Below are positions 1,007 through 11,217 of a stretch of 13,646 bases of DNA, in pieces. The stretch lies in UHGV virus genome UHGV-0885819. One strand, written 5' to 3'. The position numbers and the translations under genes were made by a program. Under the pieces are notes generated by a model, which saw only the letters and a program-made list of their open reading frames with translations, made no database searches and was not told where the DNA came from. Source of the stretch: a virus. The first letter of the stretch is position 1, and every line of letters begins with the position of its first letter.

Positions 1007-1330
1007 ATGATGATGCCAGAAAAACATGACCTGTTAGCCGCCATTCTCGCGGCAAAGGAACAAGGCATCGGGGCAATCCTTGCGTTTGCAATGGCGTACC
1101 TTCGCGGCAGATATAATGGCGGTGCGTTTACAAAAACAGTAATCGACGCAACGATGTGCGCCATTATCGCCTGGTTCATTCGTGACCTTCTCGACTTCGC
1201 CGGACTAAGTAGCAATCTCGCTTATATAACGAGCGTGTTCATCGGCTACATCGGTACTGACTCGATTGGTTCGCTTATCAAACGCTTCGCTGCTAAAAAA
1301 GCCGGAGTAGAAGATGGTGGAAATCAATAA
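1007..1330 (+). CDS. S: Class I holin S (107 aa; three consecutive ATG codons at 1007, 1010 and 1013, the third matching the lambda S105 start)
   Basis: Protein [39 protein letters not shown]... is almost identical to lambda S as I recall it, with three predicted transmembrane segments and a G-run ahead of the start. Confidence 0.9.
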
Positions 1331-1790
1331 TCAACGTAAGGCGTTCCTCGATATGCTGGCGTGGTCGGAGGGAACTGATAACGGACGGCAGAAAACCAGA
1401 AATCATGGTTATGACGTCATTGTAGGCGGAGAGCTATTCACTGATTACTCCGATCACCCTCGCAAACTTGTCACGCTAAACCCAAAGCTCAAATCAACAG
1501 CCGCCGGACGTTACCAGCTTCTTTCACGTTGGTGGGATGCCTACCGCAAGCAACTTGGCCTGAAAGACTTCTCTCCCAAAAGCCAGGACGCAGTGGCATT
1601 GCAGCAGATTAAAGAGCGTGGCGCTTTACCGATGATTGATCGCGGTGATATTCGTCAGGCTATCGACCGTTGCAGCAATATCTGGGCTTCACTGCCGGGC
1701 GCTGGTTATGGTCAGTTCGAGCATAAGGCTGACAGCCTGATTGCAAAATTCAAAGAAGCAGGCGGAACGGTCAGAGAGATTGAGGTATGA
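1314..1790 (+). CDS. R: Endolysin R (lytic transglycosylase, 158 aa)
   Basis: Protein [39 protein letters not shown]... matches lambda R in sequence and length. Its start overlaps the end of S and its stop overlaps the Rz start (ATGA). Confidence 0.9.
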
Positions 1791-2224
1791 GCAGAGTAAC
1801 CGCGATTATCTCCGCTCTGGTTATCTGTATCATCGTCTGCCTGTCATGGGCTGTTAATCATTACCGTGATAACGCAATCGCCTACAAAGAGCAGCGCGAT
1901 AAGGCCACATCCACAATCGCTGACATGCAGAAGCGTCAACGTGATGTAGCAGAACTCGACGCCAGATACACAAAGGAGCTTGCTGATGCTAACGCGACTA
2001 TCGAAAGTCTCCGTGCTGATGTTTCTGCTGGGCGTAAGCGCCTGCAAGTCGCCGCCACCTGTGCAAAGTCAACGACCGGAGCCAGCGGCATGGGCAATGG
2101 AGAAAGCCCAAGACTTACAGCAGATGCTGAACTCAATTATTACCGTCTACGAAGTGGAATCGACAGGATAACCGCGCAGGTTAACTACCTGCAGGAGTAC
2201 ATCAGGACGCAATGCCTGAAATAA
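1787..2224 (+). CDS. Rz: i-spanin Rz (145 aa, inner-membrane subunit)
   Basis: N-terminal transmembrane helix ([16 protein letters not shown]) followed by a charged coiled-coil region. Position and N-terminus match lambda Rz; the central and C-terminal parts diverge from lambda. Confidence 0.85.
1986..2171 (+). CDS. Rz1: o-spanin Rz1 (outer-membrane lipoprotein embedded in the +1 frame of Rz)
   Basis: ATG at 1986 sits 8 nt after AAGGAG. The signal peptide [20 protein letters not shown] ends in a lipobox cysteine and is followed by a proline-rich stretch. Fully nested within Rz, as in lambda. Confidence 0.75.
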
Positions 2225-2256
2225 TTTTTTTGCAAATCACAAAGTCAATTTAATGA

Positions 2257-2281
2257 GCCTCGCGATGCGGGGCTTTTTATT
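2257..2281 (+). terminator. Intrinsic terminator after Rz
   Basis: GC-rich 7-bp stem GCCTCGC / GCGGGGC with a 3-nt loop, followed by TTTTTATT. Confidence 0.5.
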
Positions 2282-2302
2282 CCCAACTCTATAGGTAATT
2301 TT

Positions 2303-2803
2303 ATGACCCAGCATATTGGCGTAAAACTGATTAACGCCTTTCCGATGACGAGACAGGCATATAACGATTTTCGTGGCTGGCAGCTTCCTGCCGGAGAAAA
2401 CGGCGAGGAAGAAGGCTATCTGGTTGAATATCTGGATGGCGGAAAACCTAACACCGATCGCTTTGATGGCTACGTTAGCTGGAGTCCAAAAGAAGTATTC
2501 GAAAAGGCTTATCGTCCGGTATCAGGGCTAAGTTTCGGCCTTGCCATCGAAGCACTCAAACTGGGTAAGAAAGTTACCCGCGCTGGCTGGAATGGGAAAG
2601 GCATGTATCTGCAATTAGTTCAGCCACCGCAATCAGCCACTCCGAATGATTGGCGTTATGACGTTACATGTGGTGACGAGTATACATTTGTTCCTGGTGT
2701 AAAACTTCTTCCCTGGATTGGGATGAAGACTGCTGATTGTAAATTTGTTCCGTGGTTGGCGAGTCAGACTGATGTTCTGGCTGAAGACTGGCAAATCATT
2801 TAA
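2303..2803 (+). CDS. 166-aa two-domain accessory protein: unrecognised N-terminal domain plus a C-terminal DUF2829-like (Tad2-like) domain
   Basis: Clean ORF in the post-lysis accessory slot. The C-terminal half carries GWNGKGM and a [17 protein letters not shown] tail, which I recognise as DUF2829 hallmarks. The domain call is from memory, not from a search. Confidence 0.75.
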
Positions 2804-2819
2804 CCATGTAGGCATTACA

Positions 2820-2841
2820 AAGCCCATCTACTGGTGGGCTT
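2820..2841 (+). promoter_or_regulatory. Stem-loop in the 233-bp spacer after the 166-aa gene
   Basis: Perfect 7-bp stem AAGCCCA / TGGGCTT with an 8-nt loop and no following T-run. Confidence 0.3.
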
Positions 2842-3036
2842 GATAATGAAACCGGAATTTATTCTGGGCAACCAGTTACGGCAGTACAGCGAAACAACCC
2901 AAGCCAGTAAGTGGGGAAATAACACTGGCAGCCACTGAAAGATGAACCTCCAGCCTTATGGCAAAAAAGATTCTTTGTGGTGGCGGACTGATGGAAAGAC
3001 ATCCTAATCAAGCAACTACTCTACAGGGTCATAATT

Positions 3037-3375
3037 ATGAACGACCAGCAAATCGAAAAAGAAATCGTTGAGAAAGGCAAAACGGCACCGCGCGTTACGC
3101 CAGACCATATCGAAAGCATTATTCTTGCGGAAACGTACTTCACTGCTGCTGATGGGGCTATTGCAACTGGCGATGACTATCACGACAGTTTGGCTCTGCT
3201 GACATTTTGTGTATTGACTCTACAAAATGGCTTCACCGTCACCGGTGAAAGCGCTTGCGCCAGTCCTGAAAACTTTGATGCAGAAATTGGTCGGAAGATT
3301 GCCCGGCAAAATGCTGTAAACAAAATCTGGATGCTCGAAGGTTACTTGCTGAAGCAGAAGCTAAGCGAACAGTAG
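3037..3375 (+). CDS. Conserved phage protein of unknown function (112 aa), possibly the N4 gp49 / Sf6 gp66 family
   Basis: ORF preceded by an AGGG Shine-Dalgarno-like motif. Motifs YFTAADG and GESACASPENFDAEIGRKIA look familiar from lambdoid prophage proteins placed ahead of terminase genes; the family assignment is uncertain. Confidence 0.75.
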   Translation: MNDQQIEKEIVEKGKTAPRVTPDHIESIILAETYFTAADGAIATGDDYHDSLALLTFCVLTLQNGFTVTGESACASPENFDAEIGRKIARQNAVNKIWMLEGYLLKQKLSEQ

Positions 3376-3478
3376 TTATTACAAAAGCCATTCCCTACAG
3401 AGTGGCTTTGACAATGGCTTATACCCTACACGGGATAACTTAACTGATATCCCTTTTAACGGATAAACGGAGCCAACA

Positions 3479-3691
3479 ATGGCAGAGATTATTCCCATGA
3501 CTGAAGAACAGAAATTCAAGTTAGAAATTTACCGACTGCTATCTAAGAACAATTCAGCGGCAGAGGAAGCTTTTGCATTCATTGGTGCTGACCAGCTGAA
3601 ACTGGAATTGTTCAAGTTGCACTACAACGATGGCGGTGCAAATCCAGACTTCACATCTCGCACTATCGAAGCGGTGCGTAAATCGAAGTAA
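3479..3691 (+). CDS. Small hypothetical protein (70 aa)
   Basis: ORF with GGAG 8 nt upstream of the ATG, predicted helical, no recognisable motif. Sits immediately upstream of the small terminase gene. Confidence 0.55.
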   Translation: MAEIIPMTEEQKFKLEIYRLLSKNNSAAEEAFAFIGADQLKLELFKLHYNDGGANPDFTSRTIEAVRKSK

Positions 3692-3756
3692 GCGTTAGAC
3701 CTGTTCACTACCGGAGCATGACGCTCAACCTGAAATAACAACTAAGTGAGATGAAT

Positions 3757-4245
3757 ATGGCAGCACCAAAGGGCAACCGATTTTGGGAGGCCCGCAGTAG
3801 TCATGGGCGAAATCCTAAATTCGAATCGCCTGAGGCGCTGTGGGCTGCTTGTTGTGAATACTTCGAGTGGGTAGAAGCTAACCCGCTATGGGAGATGAAG
3901 GCGTTCTCGTATCAGGGTGAAGTGATACAAGAGCCTATCGCCAAGATGCGAGCGATGACCATTACCGGCCTCACTCTGTTCATTGATGTGACGCTTGAAA
4001 CATGGCGCACATATCGCCTGCGAGAAGATTTATCTGAAGTCGTTACGCGAGCAGAGCAGGTCATCTACGACCAGAAATTCTCTGGCGCAGCCGCTGACCT
4101 TCTCAACGCTAACATAATCGCCCGTGATTTGGGCCTCAAAGAGCAGTCGCAAGTTGAAGACGTGACACCTGATAAGGGAGATCGCGATAAGCGGCGCTCT
4201 CGTATCAAGGAGCTATTCAACCGTGGAACTGGACGCGATTCTTGA
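3757..4245 (+). CDS. 3: Terminase small subunit, P22 gp3-like (162 aa from ATG 3757; an in-frame ATG at 3751 is an alternative start)
   Basis: Protein [48 protein letters not shown]... matches P22 gp3 as I recall it, including length, and is followed by the large terminase gene. Confidence 0.85.
4024..4045 (+). other. pac-like site for headful packaging initiation, inside the small terminase gene
   Basis: GAAGATTTATCTGAAGTCGTTA matches the 22-bp P22 pac sequence as I recall it, and it lies within the gp3 homologue (peptide REDLSEVVT) as the P22 pac site does. Confidence 0.5.
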
Positions 4246-5722
4246 TAACCTGAGCGACGAAGAGCAAATAGAATTGCTCGAACTACTCGAAGAAGAAGAG
4301 AACTACCGGAACACACACCTGCTATATGAATTTACGCCATACAGCAAACAGCGTGAGTTCATCGACGCCGGACATGACTATCCAGAGCGATGTTTTATGG
4401 CTGGTAACCAGCTTGGTAAGTCATTTACTGGTGCTGCTGAAGTCGCGTTTCACCTTACAGGGCGTTATCCGGGCACAAAAGGCTATCCTGCTGATGGTAA
4501 ATATGGCGGTGAGTGGAAAGGTAAGCGTTTCTATGAGCCTGTTGTCTTTTGGATTGGTGGCGAGACAAACGAGACTGTAACCAAAACGACTCAACGCATC
4601 CTGTGCGGTCGTATCGAAGAGAATGATGAGCCTGGCTACGGTTCCATACCGAAAGAAGACATCATTAGCTGGAAGAAGTCTCCTTTCTTTCCGAACCTTG
4701 TTGATCATCTTCTGGTTAAGCATCACACGGCTGATGGCGTTGAAGATGGCATTTCAATCTGCTACTTCAAGCCATACTCGCAAGGCCGCGCTCGCTGGCA
4801 GGGTGACACAATCCACGGCGTGTGGTTTGACGAAGAGCCACCATACAGCATTTATGGCGAAGGTCTTACCCGTACCAACAAATACGGGCAATTCTCAATT
4901 CTGACGTTTACCCCGCTGATGGGGATGTCTGACGTTGTTACCAAGTTACTGAAGAATCCCAGCAAGTCGCAGAAAGTGGTCAACATGACCATCTATGACG
5001 CTGAGCACTACACCGACGAGCAGAAAGAGCAAATCATCGCATCCTATCCTGAGCATGAGAGAGAGGCGCGTGCTCGCGGTATTCCTACGATGGGTAGTGG
5101 TCGAATCTTCCAGATACCGGAAGAGACGATTAAGTGTCAGCCGTTCGAGTGTCCTGATCACTTCTACGTAATTGGCGGGATGGATTTTGGATGGGATCAC
5201 CCGCAGGCGCAGGTTCAGCTTTGGTGGGATAAGGACGCAGACACAATCTACGTTTCACGCGTGTGGAAGGCGAAAGAAAAAACAGCCGTTCAGGCATGGG
5301 GAGCTGTTAAATCATGGGCGCATAAAGTGCCAACCGCATGGCCTCATGACGGAAACCAGCACGAGAAGGGCGGCGGTGAGCAGCTCAAAGGGCAGTATGC
5401 AGATGCTGGTTTTATGATGTTGCAGGAGCATGCGACATGGCCTGATGGCGGTAATGCTGTGGAGCCTGGCATCACTGAATTGCGCGACATGATGCTCGAT
5501 GGTCGCTTCAAAGTATTCAACACCTGTGAGCCATTCTTTGAGGAGTTCCGCCTCTATCACCGTGATGAAAACGGGAAAATCGTCAAGCTTAACGACGACG
5601 TGCTATCCGCCGTTCGCTATGCATACATGATGCGCCGCTTCGCAAAAATGATGCGCGACATCAAAAAACCAAAAGAGAAAAAGATACCAGCCCCAATCAG
5701 GCCCATCGCACGGAGAACTTAA
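4223..5722 (+). CDS. 2: Terminase large subunit, P22 gp2-like (499 aa, GTG start overlapping the end of the small terminase gene by 23 nt)
   Basis: Protein [37 protein letters not shown]... with an ATPase-like region and a C-terminal nuclease region. AAGGAG lies 10 nt upstream of the GTG; length matches P22 gp2. Confidence 0.9.
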
Positions 5723-7888
5723 ATGGCCGACGAAAACAGACTCAATTCCATTCTGTGTAAGTTTGACGCAGACTGGATGGCGAGCGATGAAGCCAGAACC
5801 GAGGCGACAAATGACCTGTATTTTAGCCGAGTGTCGCAATGGGATGACTGGCTATCAAACTACACGACCCTGCAATATCGCGGACAATTCGATGTTGTTC
5901 GCCCGGTGGTCAGGAAACTGGTCGCAGAGATGCGCCGTAACCCTATCGACGTTCTCTTCAGACCAAAAGACGGCGCTAATCCTGATGCTGCCGATGTGTT
6001 GATGGGGATGTATCGTACTGATATGCGCCATAACACGGCAAAGATTGCTGTTAACGTTGGCGTTCGTGAGCAGATAGAGTCCGGCGTTGGTGCATGGCGT
6101 CTGGTCACGCAGTACGAAGACAACGACCCAACAAGCAACAATCAGGTAATCCGACGCCTTCCAATCCATGAAGCCTGCTCACACGTCATATGGGACGCCA
6201 ACAGCAAGCAGATGGATAAGAGCGACGCTAAGCACTGCACGGTGATTAACGCTTTGTCACGCAATGGCTGGAAAGAGTTCGCAGAGGATTACGGTATTGA
6301 TCCTGACACCCTGCCATCTTTCCAGAATCCGAACGACACATGGCTGTTTCCGTGGGTATCGAATGATGTCGTCTACGTCGCTGAGTATTACGAGGTCGAA
6401 GAGAAGAAAGAGAAGGTCTTCATCTACCGCGACCCGCTGACAGGTGAGCCGGTCAGCTATTACCAGCAGGATATCAAAGACGTCATCGACGACCTGGCTA
6501 ATCGTGGATTCATTAAGGTAGCAGAGCGCAAGGTGAAGCGTCGGCGTGTGTATAAGTCGATCATCACCTGCACGCAGATACTGAAAGACCGCGAGAAGAT
6601 AGCCGGAGAGCATATTCCAATCGTTCCAGTGTATGGCGAATGGTCATTCGCTGGTGACAAGGAGTGCTACGAAGGAGTGGTAAGGCTGACGAAAGACGGT
6701 CAGCGCCTTCGTAACATGATCATGTCATTCAACGCCGATATTGTTGCTCGTTCACCGAAGAAGAAACCGACCTTCTTCCCTGAGCAAATCGAAGGCTACG
6801 AATACATGTACGGTGGAAATGACGACTATCCGTACTATCTGCAGAACAAGACCGATGAAAACGGTAACGACCTGCCGATTGGTCCAATCTCCTACATGGA
6901 AAACCCTGAAGTACCGCAGGCCAACGCTTACATGCTTGAGGCTGCCACCAACGCAGTGAAAGAGGTGGCTAGTCTTGGCGTGGATGCGCAGGCGGCAAAT
7001 GGTCAGGTCGCTTTCGATACCGTCAATCAACTGAACATGCGGGCAGACCTTGAGACATACGTGTTTCAGGATAACCTGGCTACCGCAATGCGACGTGATG
7101 GCGAGATTTATGCCTCAATGGTCAACGATATTTATGACGTTCCTCGTCATGTAACGCTGACACTTGAAGATGGAAGCGAGAAAGACGTTCAACTCTATGC
7201 GCAAGTTGTCGATTACCAGTCCGGCAATGTGGTCACACTCAACGACATTCGTGGTCGATATGAGTGCTATACGGACGTTGGGCCATCCTTCCAGAGCATG
7301 AAGGAACAGAACCGCGCAGAGATTCAGGAGTTACTCACCAAGGTTCCGCAAGGTACTCCAGAGTTCCAGATGCTGATGCTGCAATACTTCACGCTGCTTG
7401 ACGGTAAAGGCGTCGAGATGATGCGAGAGTACGCGAACAAGCAACTGGTGATGATGGGGCTGAAGAAACCAGAAACACCTGAAGAGATGGAGATGGTACA
7501 GCAGGCACAACAACAGCCGCAGCAGCCATCAGCAGAGCAAATTCAGGCGCAGGGTATCCTTCTGCAAGGTCAGGCTGAATTGCTCAAGGCAGAGAACCAA
7601 CAGGCGCAGATTCAGGTTGAAGCCGCCAAGGTTGAAGCCCAAAACCAACTCAACGCCGCGAAGATTGCAGAAATCTTCAACAATATGGACCTCGACAAGC
7701 AGGCAGAACTGCGTGAGTACCTCAAGCTCGTAGGTCAATTCCAGCAACAGCGCAGCAAAGATGCTCGTGCTAACGCTGAGCTGCTTCTTAAAGATGCAGA
7801 CCAGACTCATTCACAACGCATGGATTTCGCGAATCTTATGCGTCAAGTTCAAATCCCCTCCGGCGGAGTAGCCGAGACACCTCAATAA
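5723..7888 (+). CDS. 1: Portal protein, P22 gp1-like (721 aa)
   Basis: Start ATG directly follows the terminase stop (TAAATG) with GGAG upstream. Long Q/A/E-rich C-terminal helix is typical of the P22 portal barrel; position and size match. Confidence 0.9.
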
Positions 7889-7901
7889 GAGAGAGTTAAT
7901 C

Positions 7902-8813
7902 ATGGACCAAACCACCGACATTCAGGCTTCTGAAGAATTAACCCTGCCCGGCAATCATGCAGCGGCATCTGCTGATGGCTTAGTTGTCGATAATGCCAAC
8001 GACAACGCAGGTCAGGAAGAAGGCTTCGAGATTGTCCTGAAAGACGATGAGAAACCAAAACAAGACCCGGCAACTAATGCTGAATTTGCCCGTCGCCGCA
8101 TCGAACGCAAACGCCAGCGTGAGCTTGAGCAACAGATGGAAGCGGTTAAGCGGGGAGAGTTGCCGGAGCACCTGCGGGTGAACCCTGAGTTACCAAAACA
8201 ACCAGACCCTAACGATTATCTTTCCGAAGACGCACTGGCTAAGTACGACTATGACCAGAGCCGCGCACTGGCTGCCTTCCAGCAGGCAAACAGTGAATGG
8301 CAGATCAAGGCTATGGATGCACGAAGCCAGGCTGTCGCCGAGCAGGGTCGCAAAACTCAGGAGTTCACCCAGCAATCAGCGCAATACGTCGAGGCAGCCC
8401 GTAAGCACTACGACGCAGCGGAAAAGCTCAATATCCCTGACTATCAGGAGAAAGAGGATGCATTCATGCAACTGGTGACGCCAGCAGTCGGTGCCGACAT
8501 CATGCGCCTCTTCCCGGAGAAATCCGCTGCTCTCATGTATCACCTTGGTGCTAATCCTGAGAAAACACGCCAGTTGCTGGCGATGGACGGGCAATCCGCG
8601 CTGATTGAACTCACTCGACTGTCAGAACGTTTAACTCTCAAGCCTCGAGCCAAACCTGTTTCAGAAGCCCCGCTACCTGATGAACCCATTCAGGGACACG
8701 CTGTTGCTGCAAATATATCTGCGATTGAAAAGCAGATGGAAGCGGCAGCAAACAAAGGGGATGTAGAGACATACCGCAAGCTTAAGGCGCAACTGAATAA
8801 AGGAATTCGATAA
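7902..8813 (+). CDS. 8: Scaffolding protein, P22 gp8-like (303 aa)
   Basis: Protein [50 protein letters not shown]... resembles P22 gp8 in sequence and has the same length; it ends in a helix-turn-helix-like coat-binding tail. Confidence 0.9.
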
Positions 8814-10108
8814 TGGCATTAAATGAAGGTCAACTGGTCACGTATGCTCTGGATGAAATCATCGAAACCGTCCAGAACCTGACGCCAATGGCGTCCAAAG
8901 TGACAAAATACACCCCTCCGGCAGAATCCATGCAGCGTTCAAGCAACACCGTGTGGATGCCTGTTGAGCAGGAAGCGCCAACCCAGACTGGCTGGGATTT
9001 AACTGGCAACGCAACCGGGATTCTGGAACTCTCCGTGAAGTGCAACATGGGCGATCCGGATAACGATTTCTTCGAGCTTCGTGCAGATGACCTGCGTGAT
9101 GAGCGTTCTTACCGTCGCCGCATCCAGGCATCCGCCAAAAAACTGGCGAATAACATTGAGTCAGCGATTGCCAAACAGGCAACTGAAATGGGCTCGCTTG
9201 TTGTTCACGATACCCGCGCAATTGGTCCATCTACTGGCCTGTCTGGCTGGGATTTTGTGTCTGATGCAGAGCGCCTGATGTTCTCCCGTGAGCTAAACCG
9301 CGATATGGGCATCAGTTACTTCCTGAACCCTGACGATTACCGCAAAGCAGGCCGCAACCTGGTAGATGGCGACATCTTCGGGCGAGTTCCTGAAGAAGCG
9401 TATCGCAACGGTACTATTCAGCGTCAGATTGCTGGCTTTGATGAAATTCTTCGCTCACCTAAACTTCCGGCAGTTACCAAGTCAACCGCTACTGGTGTAA
9501 CTGTTTCTGGTGCGCAGAAGTTTAAGCCGCAGGCATACACTCTTGATACCGATGGTAACAAAGAGAACGTCGACAACCGTGTTGCAACGGTGACCGTATC
9601 CTCCACCACCGGATTTAAGCGCGGCGACAAAATCAGCTTCACTGGCGTGAAATTCCTGTCTCAGATGGCGAAGAACGTGCTGACTGATGACGCGACTTTC
9701 TCAATCACCCGTGTGATCGATGGTACTCACATCGAAATCACGCCGAAGCCGATTGCGCTTGATGACGCTTCACTGACAAAAGAAGAGAAGGCTTACGCTA
9801 ACGTAAACACCTCTCTTGCTGATACCACTCCGGTAAACGTTCTGAACGTGGCAACGACCACCGCTAACGTGTTCTGGGCTGATGACTCAATCCGTCTGCT
9901 GTCTCAGCCGATCCCGGTAACCCATGAACTGTTTGCTGGCATGAAAACGTCTTCCTTCAGCATTCCTGGTATTGGTGTTAACGGCATCTTCGCAACGCAG
10001 GGTGATATCAACACTCTGTCTGGTAAGTGCCGTATTGCTGTGTGGTATTCAGCATGTGCTGTACGACCAGAGGCAATTGGTGTTGGTCTGCCTAACCAGA
10101 CCGCGTGA
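8813..10108 (+). CDS. 5: Major coat protein, P22 gp5-like (431 aa)
   Basis: Protein [54 protein letters not shown]... resembles P22 coat protein. Start overlaps the scaffold stop (TAATG). Confidence 0.9.
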
Positions 10109-10113
10109 TAACC

Positions 10114-10140
10114 AGAGGGAGCTTCGGCTCCCTTTTCTAT
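10114..10140 (+). terminator. Tetraloop hairpin terminator or attenuator just after the coat gene
   Basis: Stem GAGGGAGC (10114-10121) / GCTCCCTT (10126-10133) closed by a TTCG tetraloop and followed by TTTTCTATT. Confidence 0.5.
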
Positions 10141-10151
10141 TGGAGATACCA

Positions 10152-10739
10152 ATGAGCGTAATGATTTTTCAGGCTGGCGGAGATACCAAAATATGGGGGC
10201 GCAAGCTGAAAACGAAAACCGTTGATCCTGATGATGTAGCTGTGCACTTAGCAAATGGCTGGTATAAGCACCCTGACGATGTTCCTGATGATCCTCTTGT
10301 TGGTGATCAAATTGGGAGTGTTGGCGTAGGTGAAACTTCCCCAGTTGATATGGGCGAAGTGTCCGACGGTTATCACACTTTTAACGAGCTTTACGCTCAC
10401 CGAGTGCGCCTCTTCTCATCGCTGATGCATGCTTACGCTGAGCTTTCGTGGTGGTCTCGCAAACACAGTGACGGTGAAGAGTGGGATGGCTGGATTATTG
10501 CTGGTATCACCACTCCAGAAGGCGAAATCACTTATCACCTACCTGTTGAAGAAATCGAGTTCCTTCCTGAAGGTACTGAGCTTGAGTTCGGGAAAGAGTG
10601 GGATGGTCATGAAGCAAATGATGTTCTTGGACGACTCCTGAGTTTGCGTCCGGCCATTGCAGAGCCAGAAGAAAAACAGCGTAAAAAGCCTGGTCGAAAA
10701 CCTAAGGCGGCAGCAGATGAACCTGACAACGAAGGGTGA
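10152..10739 (+). CDS. Unrecognised acidic protein (195 aa) between the coat and gp4 genes
   Basis: ATG at 10152 with GGAG 6 nt upstream; its 3' end overlaps the gp4 start by 23 nt. By my count the product has roughly twice as many acidic as basic residues, plus a lysine-rich tail ([11 protein letters not shown]). The upstream part of the six-frame ORF (9972-10151) overlaps coat and is not coding. Confidence 0.7.
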
Positions 10740-11217
10740 TTTAGTTCTTGCGGCATTACGTAAGCTCGGTGTGGCATCAAATGCCACGTTAACCGATGTC
10801 GAACCGCAGTCTATGGAAGACGGCGTTAACGACCTTGAAATGATGATGGCTGAATGGCTTGGCGGTGATGCGTCACCTGGTATCAACGTTGGCTACATTT
10901 TTGCTGATGCAGATGTTGCTCCGGATCCGGGCGATGAGCACGGCTTATCAAATAACGCTATTAATGCCGTCATTTTCAACCTTGCCTGCCGCATTGCTCC
11001 AGATTATGCGCTGGAAGCGTCTGCAAAACTTATAACCACTGCCAGATACGGGAAAGAGCGACTCGTCAAACTGTCTGCAATGGACAGAGCAAAAGCCGCT
11101 AAATGTAAGTCCGGTTATCCAAACCGTATGCCTGTTGGTAGCGGTAACCAGTTGGCGAAGTGGAACGGTTGGAATTACTTCCACCGAAAGGAACCTTGCG
11201 ATAACGGGAGCGAATAA
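10717..11217 (+). CDS. 4: Tail accessory factor, P22 gp4-like (166 aa from ATG 10717)
   Basis: Protein [47 protein letters not shown]... matches P22 gp4 in sequence and length. The upstream TTG at 10657 in the ORF track is unlikely to be the start. Confidence 0.85.

Follow-up and report, generated by a model that had tools for sequence, protein, structure and literature searches.

A probable cargo island with two predicted nucleotide-signal sponges between the lysis and terminase genes of a P22-like phage

The interval between the spanin gene Rz and the small terminase gene (TerS) of the virus genome UHGV-0885819 (positions 2225-3738 of the 13,646-nucleotide (nt) stretch analysed here, referred to as the window) is quite probably a dispensable, modular cargo island of the late operon, and in this genome it holds two predicted nucleotide-signal sponges. 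The phage or prophage is P22-like (Lederbergvirus), and the window represents its late region. Three open reading frames (ORFs) lie on the plus strand between Rz and TerS, at 2303-2803 (ORF-A, 166 amino acids (aa)), 3037-3375 (ORF-B, 112 aa) and 3479-3691 (ORF-C, 70 aa), and they are separated by spacers of 233 bp (2804-3036) and 103 bp (3376-3478). In these respects the anatomy agrees with a preliminary description of the stretch, in which the interval was taken for an accessory gene island of the moron or anti-defence type, and that interpretation proved right in substance. In kind, the locus is known biology, namely a variable accessory slot of a lambdoid late operon that is occupied by known sponge families.

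Boundaries and gene content of the island

Only two copies of the decamer CCTGAAATAA exist in the 13.6 kb window, where 0.03 are expected by chance, and they form a 10-bp direct repeat on the plus strand. The left copy (2215-2224) spans the final codons and the stop codon of Rz, and the right copy (3729-3738) is followed by the TerS leader CAACTAAGTGAGATGAATATG. When the junction predicted from this repeat was searched for by exact match, an empty site was recovered in one viral contig, L086 (IMGVR_UViG_2563366968_000005, 2114-2140). The Rz stop codon of L086 lies within a single CCTGAAATAA, followed by CAACTAAGTGAGATGAATATG and, 12 nt on, by the TerS gene, with no island and no gene of the DUF2560 family. 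Since Rz is joined to the TerS leader at CCTGAAATAA in this relative, 2225-3738 can be treated as one insertion or deletion unit. The island is also set apart by its composition, with a G+C content of about 0.42-0.49 compared with about 0.49-0.53 on either side, and by its packing, as had been described for the window: outside it, across the genes from holin to coat (1007-10108), neighbours overlap or are at most 13 nt apart.

To display the variability of the slot, the DNA between Rz and TerS was compared among 80 viral contigs from IMG/VR whose TerS is 96-100% identical to that of the window. The interval measures between 580 and 2602 bp, and 57 architectures were observed among 71 distinct interval sequences, in line with the variable gene content that had been proposed. 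Of the 80 loci, 5 carry a Tad2-like gene and 15 an Acb4-like gene, and none has both. The gene trio of the window was found at the same positions in IME10 and Huey only among the relatives compared, and not in all related phages. These two are also the nearest deposited genomes over the interval (about 94% identity, with 89-93% of the query covered). A search of Escherichia coli for the exact island gave the trio, for example in strain 55989, but at no more than 75-80% coverage and about 92-93% identity.

Three sub-slots can be distinguished, with occupants counted among the 71 distinct intervals. Sub-slot a, after Rz and the terminator T1 that follows it, holds genes for Rha (29), KilA-N (17), an N-domain-Tad2 fusion of the ORF-A type (7) or T5orf172 (5), or is empty. 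Sub-slot b, between a conserved non-coding block and the boundary hairpin hp2, holds Acb4 (15), DUF551 (5) or a 62-aa unknown (4), or is empty. Sub-slot c, from DUF2560 to TerS, holds an orf59c-like gene (31), a 134-aa phrog_3018 protein (12), a 95-aa relative of the N-domain (6) or a 129-aa unknown (4), or is empty.

Several further observations concern these sub-slots. The 134-aa protein, encoded upstream of TerS in 12 of the 71 relatives (L066-L074, L078-L083), matches phrog_3018, annotated as head decoration protein, and presumably resembles the Dec protein of phage L; because of this match, the island can be said to house virion accessory genes as well. In P22 (L084, AF527608), about 600 bp between orf25 and orf80 are devoid of annotated genes, and this gap contains a 104-aa ORF on the minus strand (1867-2181 of L084), which is a possible unannotated occupant of sub-slot b. 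In many relatives a hydrophobic ORF of 47-50 aa overlaps the Rz stop codon (Kapi1_042, Huey_CDS0063; MPSMIAIILLIILHIWLC...; L016, L001, L003); it is absent from the window, where T1 comes straight after Rz.

ORF-C, at the right end of the island, belongs to DUF2560 (P22 orf80, HK620 hkbM, Sf6 gp67; PF10834, E 2.5e-32, 111.3 bits with the cutoff at 25). All 71 distinct intervals contain DUF2560, as do 79 of the 80 loci, the sole exception having no upstream DNA on its contig; DUF2560 is thus a constant resident and not variable cargo. The anti-defence hotspot of the preliminary description holds for two of the three genes, which fall in experimentally characterised sponge families. The 70-aa gene that had been reported is present as an ORF, but it is an 80-aa gene shortened by a single GAA>TAA nonsense codon at 3689-3691, with the last 10 residues gone. 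The codon at this position is GAA in all 66 checkable relatives, and the 30 nt downstream of the stop still read EALDLFTTGA in frame, and the mutation is private and probably recent. The AlphaFold model of DUF2560 has four helices and is of only moderate confidence (pLDDT 70); no PDB sequence match was found, and a Foldseek search against the PDB gave nothing below E = 2.8.

Predicted sponge proteins and the N-domain

ORF-A is a fusion of two domains, an N-terminal domain of aa 1-74 (2303-2524; hereafter the N-domain) and a Tad2-like domain of aa 75-166 (2525-2803). Residues 77-166 match PF11195 (DUF2829, 'Thoeris anti-defense 2-like') with 86.5 bits against a cutoff of 25, covering profile positions 2-73 of 73, and the domain also matches the solved Tad2 proteins ModTad2 (E 2.6e-16), SPO1 gp34.65 and HgmTad2/AcrIIA7. 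In SPO1 Tad2, the residues touching 1''-3' gcADPR or its ordered waters are W25, N26, I63, T65, D67, H71, W73, S76, T78 and D79. Eight of these ten contacts are identical in ORF-A (W96, N97, T143, D145, W151, S154, T156 and D157), and I63 is replaced by M141. The Tad2-like domain is thus of the same predicted fold as Tad2 and matches its family model, but the characterised members all lack the 74-aa beta-rich N-terminal domain, and the beta2-beta3 loop region of ORF-A is divergent, with low model confidence (pLDDT below 50 at 117-131). The domain is predicted to sequester gcADPR-type signals of Thoeris TIR proteins.

In the nine Tad2-like genes of the slot, the first 240 nt or so (the N-domain) and the last 30-60 nt are about 100% identical, while the central Tad2 part has only 13-50% nucleotide identity and falls into four allele types; in ORF-A the allele-variable segment corresponds to about aa 100-140. 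One allele type (L039, L052, L053) also alters the pocket residues T65, D67 and T78. Recent work reports that Tad2 homologues differ in the signals bound. Because only the central, ligand-facing part is replaced and homologues differ in their signals, the mosaic suggests specificity switching by recombination.

ORF-B belongs to the Acb4 family (PF13876, N4 gp49 / Sf6 gp66), with 118.5 bits against a cutoff of 27 over aa 20-109 and profile positions 1-82 of 82. SPO1 Acb4, a tetrameric sponge for the cyclic dinucleotides of CBASS, defines this family as that of Acb4 (Chang et al., PMC11722364). All eight PF13876 homologues assayed in that study bound 3'3'-cGAMP, and homologues from phages of Gram-negative hosts bind 3'3'-cAA as well (PMC11722364); its Table S3 includes Sf6 gp66 and a Salmonella phage protein with a central region identical to that of ORF-B. 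The sole significant PDB match of ORF-B is SPO1 Acb4 (9e4w; phmmer E 1.2e-3, family profile E 6.2e-8). The ENFDAEIGR core is common to both proteins, but the pairwise similarity spans only 42 residues. The SPO1 contacts to 3'3'-cGAMP that were compared are K36, F48, E49, V56, Y57, F62, N63, I66, T70 and K81. Among these, F48, F62 and I66 are kept in ORF-B, N63, a backbone contact, is replaced by D, and K36 and K81 lie beyond the alignment. Among the alleles of ORF-B the ends are conserved and the N-terminal helical part (aa 23-55) is variable. ORF-B is predicted to sequester CBASS cyclic dinucleotides, although the SPO1 contacts are kept only in part. No match to NCBIfam or PADLOC was obtained for the proteins of ORF-A, ORF-B and ORF-C.

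Fusions of Tad2 with Acb4 are frequent, as is their co-encoding, and one Acb4-Tad2 protein blocks Thoeris as well as CBASS. The two families are likewise paired here, as in the fused sponges Acb4-Tad2 of Pasteurella phage Pm86 and Acb4-Sequestin of Pseudomonas phage Ab09, but the Pm86 domains form a single protein, whereas in the window they are encoded by separate genes 233 bp apart.

The N-domain of ORF-A has a beta-rich, SH3/Tudor-like predicted fold, and its consensus includes ...PMTRxxYNxxRGWxLPxDENGxDEGYLVEYxDGGKPN.... No Pfam model and no PDB relative were found for it. In the family alignment, 24 of its 74 positions are invariant, many of them W, Y or R, compared with 12 of 92 in the Tad2 domain. 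A full-library search gave 1,563 cluster representatives at 50% identity, in which the N-domain stands at the N-terminus, in the centre or at the C-terminus of proteins of 72-354 aa; it also occurs on its own, at a length of 74-76 aa. The fusions were counted by a Pfam scan of 146 N-domain representatives, in which the partners were Tad2 (52), Sequestin PF21825 (38), Acb4 PF13876 (19) and the Acb2/Tad1 hairpin domain (1), while at least 32 of the 146 have no recognisable partner domain and unrelated fusions were limited to four single matches (WDGH, DUF7307, AP2 and HNH_3). The architectures N-domain-Acb4, N-domain-Sequestin and Acb4-N-domain-Sequestin were confirmed by individual examples. 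Tad2, Sequestin, Acb4 and Acb2/Tad1 are the four known sponge lineages, and all of them are joined to the N-domain.

Sequestin was itself discovered through fusions to Tad2 and Acb4, in a census that queried Pfam families only. As the N-domain has no Pfam model, it would have escaped such a census. The fusion pattern that revealed Sequestin is also shown by the N-domain, which differs in being beta-rich and not PF21825. No description of the N-domain was found in the searchable literature, and two candidate identities were rejected: Lockin is reported absent from INPHARED, whereas the N-domain occurs in IME10, Kapi1 and Huey, and TadIV-1 is confined to T4-like phages; neither matches. We tentatively propose, at somewhat less than even probability, that the N-domain belongs to the anti-defence repertoire as a module not described before; it would most likely be another sponge of immune signals or an obligate sponge partner, and a purely structural role is also possible. 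The proposal takes in two further features, namely the conserved non-coding block of about 126 nt described below and the exchange of only the central part of the Tad2 domain.

Terminator, boundary hairpins and expression of the island genes

The lysis cassette is closed by an intrinsic terminator, T1 (2248-2281, plus strand), with a 9-bp stem (2255-2275) followed by TTTATT and a ATCACAAA motif upstream (-15 kcal/mol, z -3.4 against shuffled sequence). The preliminary description had assigned a private terminator to the island. A stem-loop with a T tract is indeed present, but it is not private: T1 also follows the lysis genes in relatives with Rha, KilA-N or a Tad2-like gene as the next gene. 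Since it is shared by relatives with quite different downstream genes, it closes the lysis cassette and is not the island's own.

The spacer stem-loops of the preliminary description were confirmed by folding. Hairpin hp1 (2813-2848, plus strand; CATTACAAAGCCCA...TGGGCTTGATAATG) lies just after the ORF-A stop codon (-19.7 kcal/mol, z -5.4), and hp2 (about 3374-3420, plus strand; ATTACAAAAGCCA...TGGCTTTGACAATGG) just after that of ORF-B (-18 kcal/mol, z -4.3). They are paralogues, and the motif before T1 (ATCACAAA or ATTACAAA) resembles that of these hairpin elements. In relatives, the hairpin elements are abutted by various other upstream genes, and in the minimal relative L016 the hp2 element directly follows T1. 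The spacers had been read as loose packing; this did not hold, as they are conserved boundary elements and belong to the better-conserved parts of the region across relatives. The island is composed of cassettes set apart by paralogous 'ATTACAAA + hairpin' elements and by a conserved non-coding block of about 126 nt.

This block (2878-3004), between hp1 and ORF-B, is the least variable segment of the region, with 99 of 126 columns invariant in 70 loci. Its nucleotide diversity (pi) is 0.023, compared with 0.039 for TerS, by which the sample was selected, 0.064 for DUF2560 and 0.080 for the 103-bp spacer. Matches to the block were found in 163 phage records, and in 157 of these the identity is at least 95%. 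P22, HK620, Sf101, BTP1 and ST64T are among them, as are the HK97-type siphoviruses HK97, HK022, mEp235 and HK544, whose head genes are quite different and which have the block without DUF2560. In P22 it is located at AF527608 40180-40307, beginning at the rha stop codon, and in HK97 at AF069529 38729-38854, between gp73 and gp74. It was found in 1120 of 5426 complete E. coli genomes (21%); among the 12 E. coli records listed, 10 are unannotated at the block, and in 2 the match falls on a Rha-family gene. In the majority of relatives, the 103-bp spacer adjoins the block upstream of DUF2560, and ORF-B, together with 3004-3036, is inserted at this joint, between the block and hp2 (15 of 80 loci).

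Rfam 15, applied to the whole window with an E-value limit of 1, recovered only the two tRNAs, with no match in the spacers or the block, and folding of the block showed no excess structure over shuffled sequences (z -0.5 on the plus strand, -1.2 on the minus strand); its substitutions are too few for covariation analysis. Mini-ORFs crossing the block, including a 37-aa one annotated in Huey, were rejected as genes, as their starts or ends vary outside the block, and the 34- and 37-aa mini-ORFs have no match in NCBIfam or PADLOC. The BTP1 transcriptome paper, in the part accessible, mentions nine non-coding RNAs without coordinates for this region. Candidate roles for the block are a recombination linker for cassette exchange, a cis site of the late transcript (Rho loading or processing) and a protein-binding DNA site.

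In lambdoid late operons, a Q-modified polymerase is expected to read through a terminator such as T1. Under the proposed mechanism, late transcription from the Q-antiterminated late promoter would pass through T1, and ORF-A and ORF-B would be made together with the lysis and virion genes. The two proteins would then oligomerise and bind alarm nucleotides (gcADPR-type signals and cyclic dinucleotides, respectively), so that ThsA and the CBASS effectors would stay inactive and abortive infection would be averted.

Several points weigh against a late-operon cargo island with two sponges. No plus-strand sigma-70-like site was detected upstream of ORF-A, ORF-B or ORF-C, and the total count was not above that of shuffled sequences; the scan was consensus-based, and atypical promoters may escape it. 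T1 sits only about 22 nt upstream of the ORF-A start codon, these nucleotides being conserved with the cassette, and because of this and the lack of a detected promoter, expression of ORF-A requires antitermination or an unrecognised promoter. In the predicted pockets, H71 of SPO1 Tad2 is replaced by V149 in ORF-A, and four Acb4 contacts are changed in ORF-B (E49 to T, V56 to C, Y57 to A and T70 to I), among them E49, which reads guanine, and Y57 and T70, which contact phosphate. Dispensability rests on the single contig L086, in which TerS is of a different, 142-aa type. The ligand binding, oligomeric state and expression timing of ORF-A and ORF-B are predictions from sequence. Finally, the host of Kapi1, which carries a homologue of ORF-A, lacks Thoeris (PMC12922286), and the benefit is not host-specific there.

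The same homologue bears on the reading of the island genes as classical morons, transcribed on their own in the prophage state and pre-loading the lysogen with sponges, for instance to secure the prophage's own induction, or altering host signalling. Kapi1_043 lies in the same slot as ORF-A, directly after the lysis genes and T1, and its N-domain is 99% identical; it carries another allele of the central Tad2 part (58% aa identity over the C-terminal domain, 26-50% nucleotide identity in the core), and Kapi1 has no Acb4 gene and a TerS different from that of the window. Kapi1_043 was proposed to be Tad2-like by its authors (BMC Genomics 2026, PMC12922286), and in their RNA-seq data it was the most highly expressed prophage gene of the Kapi1 lysogen in both media, above the adjacent lysis genes. 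The position of ORF-A between T1 upstream and hp1 downstream, which is the layout of an autonomous unit, and the slightly lower G+C content of the island also speak for autonomous transcription. However, scaffold and capsid reads were high in the Kapi1 cultures too, from spontaneous induction (PMC12922286), and because of this induction the high coverage of Kapi1_043 could equally well reflect a stable, hairpin-protected segment of the late mRNA. Together with the absence of a detected promoter, the short conserved stretch between T1 and ORF-A and the lack of a U tract in hp1 and hp2, this makes prophage-state expression of the island genes possible but rather unlikely. The term moron, as used in the preliminary description, therefore holds for presence or absence at the same position among relatives but not for an own sigma-70-like promoter.

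Two other readings are far less probable. According to one, the interval carries conserved core functions of lysis or packaging, with the long spacers as the decaying traces of genes since lost. The near-constant occurrence of DUF2560, always immediately upstream of the packaging genes, and the nonsense mutation of ORF-C are consistent with it, but ORF-A and ORF-B are missing from most relatives, the entire interval including DUF2560 is missing in L086, the block occurs without DUF2560 in HK97-type phages, and the spacers are more conserved than the surrounding coding DNA, which is the opposite of decay; this reading is largely refuted and very improbable. According to the other, ORF-A and ORF-B are anti-CRISPR proteins, since the Tad2-like and Acb4-like homologues of Huey (L001, PQ850609; CDS0064 and CDS0066) are deposited as 'anti-CRISPR protein'. 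This label is probably an outdated, structure-based transfer from AcrIIA7, which is in the same DUF2829 family and has only the fold in common with ORF-A. Type II CRISPR-Cas is, to our knowledge, not normally carried by E. coli, Salmonella or Shigella, which counts against such a function. Those who defined Tad2 argue that these proteins are anti-Thoeris sponges and note that Cas9 binding was never shown. With the gcADPR pocket residues conserved in ORF-A and Acb4 as the sole structural relative of ORF-B, the anti-CRISPR identity was rejected in favour of Tad2 and Acb4 and is regarded as the least probable reading. The reading of 2225-3738 as a late-operon cargo island with two predicted sponges is preferred.

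Genomic setting and significance

On the left, the island is preceded by the genes for the holin (1007-1330), the endolysin (1314-1790) and the Rz spanin (1787-2224, plus strand; PF03245, E 5e-37), the final lysis gene. An Rz1 o-spanin that was missing from the earlier gene list is embedded in Rz (1980-2171, plus strand) as a +1-frame ORF of 63 aa with a TTG start and the lipobox LLGVSAC. Between the Q region and the holin gene, the plus-strand genes of tRNA-Asn (GTT, 609-683) and tRNA-Thr (TGT, 689-764) are placed as in Kapi1 and BTP1; antisense transcription over both was described in the Kapi1 study (PMC12922286). On the right, the plus-strand TerS gene (3751-4245) is of the P22 gp3 type (PF16677, E 3.6e-33; phrog_606) and is followed in order by the large terminase, portal, scaffold, coat and more virion genes. 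An ORF with an acidic C-terminus that follows the coat gene and precedes the gene 4 homologue (10109-10740, plus strand, within 9972..10739) could be a second variable slot in the head gene cluster.

Known moron or variable regions of lambdoid phages, such as lambda bor downstream of Rz, the 'ant moron' of P22 and P22 rha-orf25-orf80-orf59c, are likewise non-essential, patchily present inserts of late operons that are flanked by hairpins or terminators. The island differs from them in that an own promoter is not detectable for its genes and that its cargo is anti-defence and not lysogenic conversion; with respect to the terminator expected of a moron, strong hairpins, which lack a U tract, directly follow the stop codons of ORF-A and ORF-B. 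In a 2008 comparison of epsilon34, the morphogenetic gene cluster was stated to contain no morons except the ant moron, and the lysis-to-terminase interval was not discussed as one.

Four points go beyond routine: the island has precise boundaries and a relative with an empty site, its scaffold of hairpins and block is shared by P22-like and HK97-like phages, Tad2 alleles are replaced within the gene and, above all, the N-domain is tied almost exclusively to sponge families and, if the proposal is true, could add a fifth fused sponge-type module. A stretch of anonymous 'hypothetical protein' entries in a very common enterobacterial prophage family becomes a defined anti-defence locus, in which a predicted anti-Thoeris gene stands beside a predicted anti-CBASS gene in a slot with clear boundaries and many alternative occupants. 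The slot is a practical place to seek new counter-defence genes, with Rha, KilA-N, DUF551, the 62-, 91- and 129-aa unknowns and DUF2560 as candidates by association, and the Tad2 allele mosaic offers a ready-made set of variants with which ligand specificity could be mapped. What a P22-like phage carries in this slot may indicate which signalling defences it is able to overcome, a point of interest to phage therapy and prophage biology.

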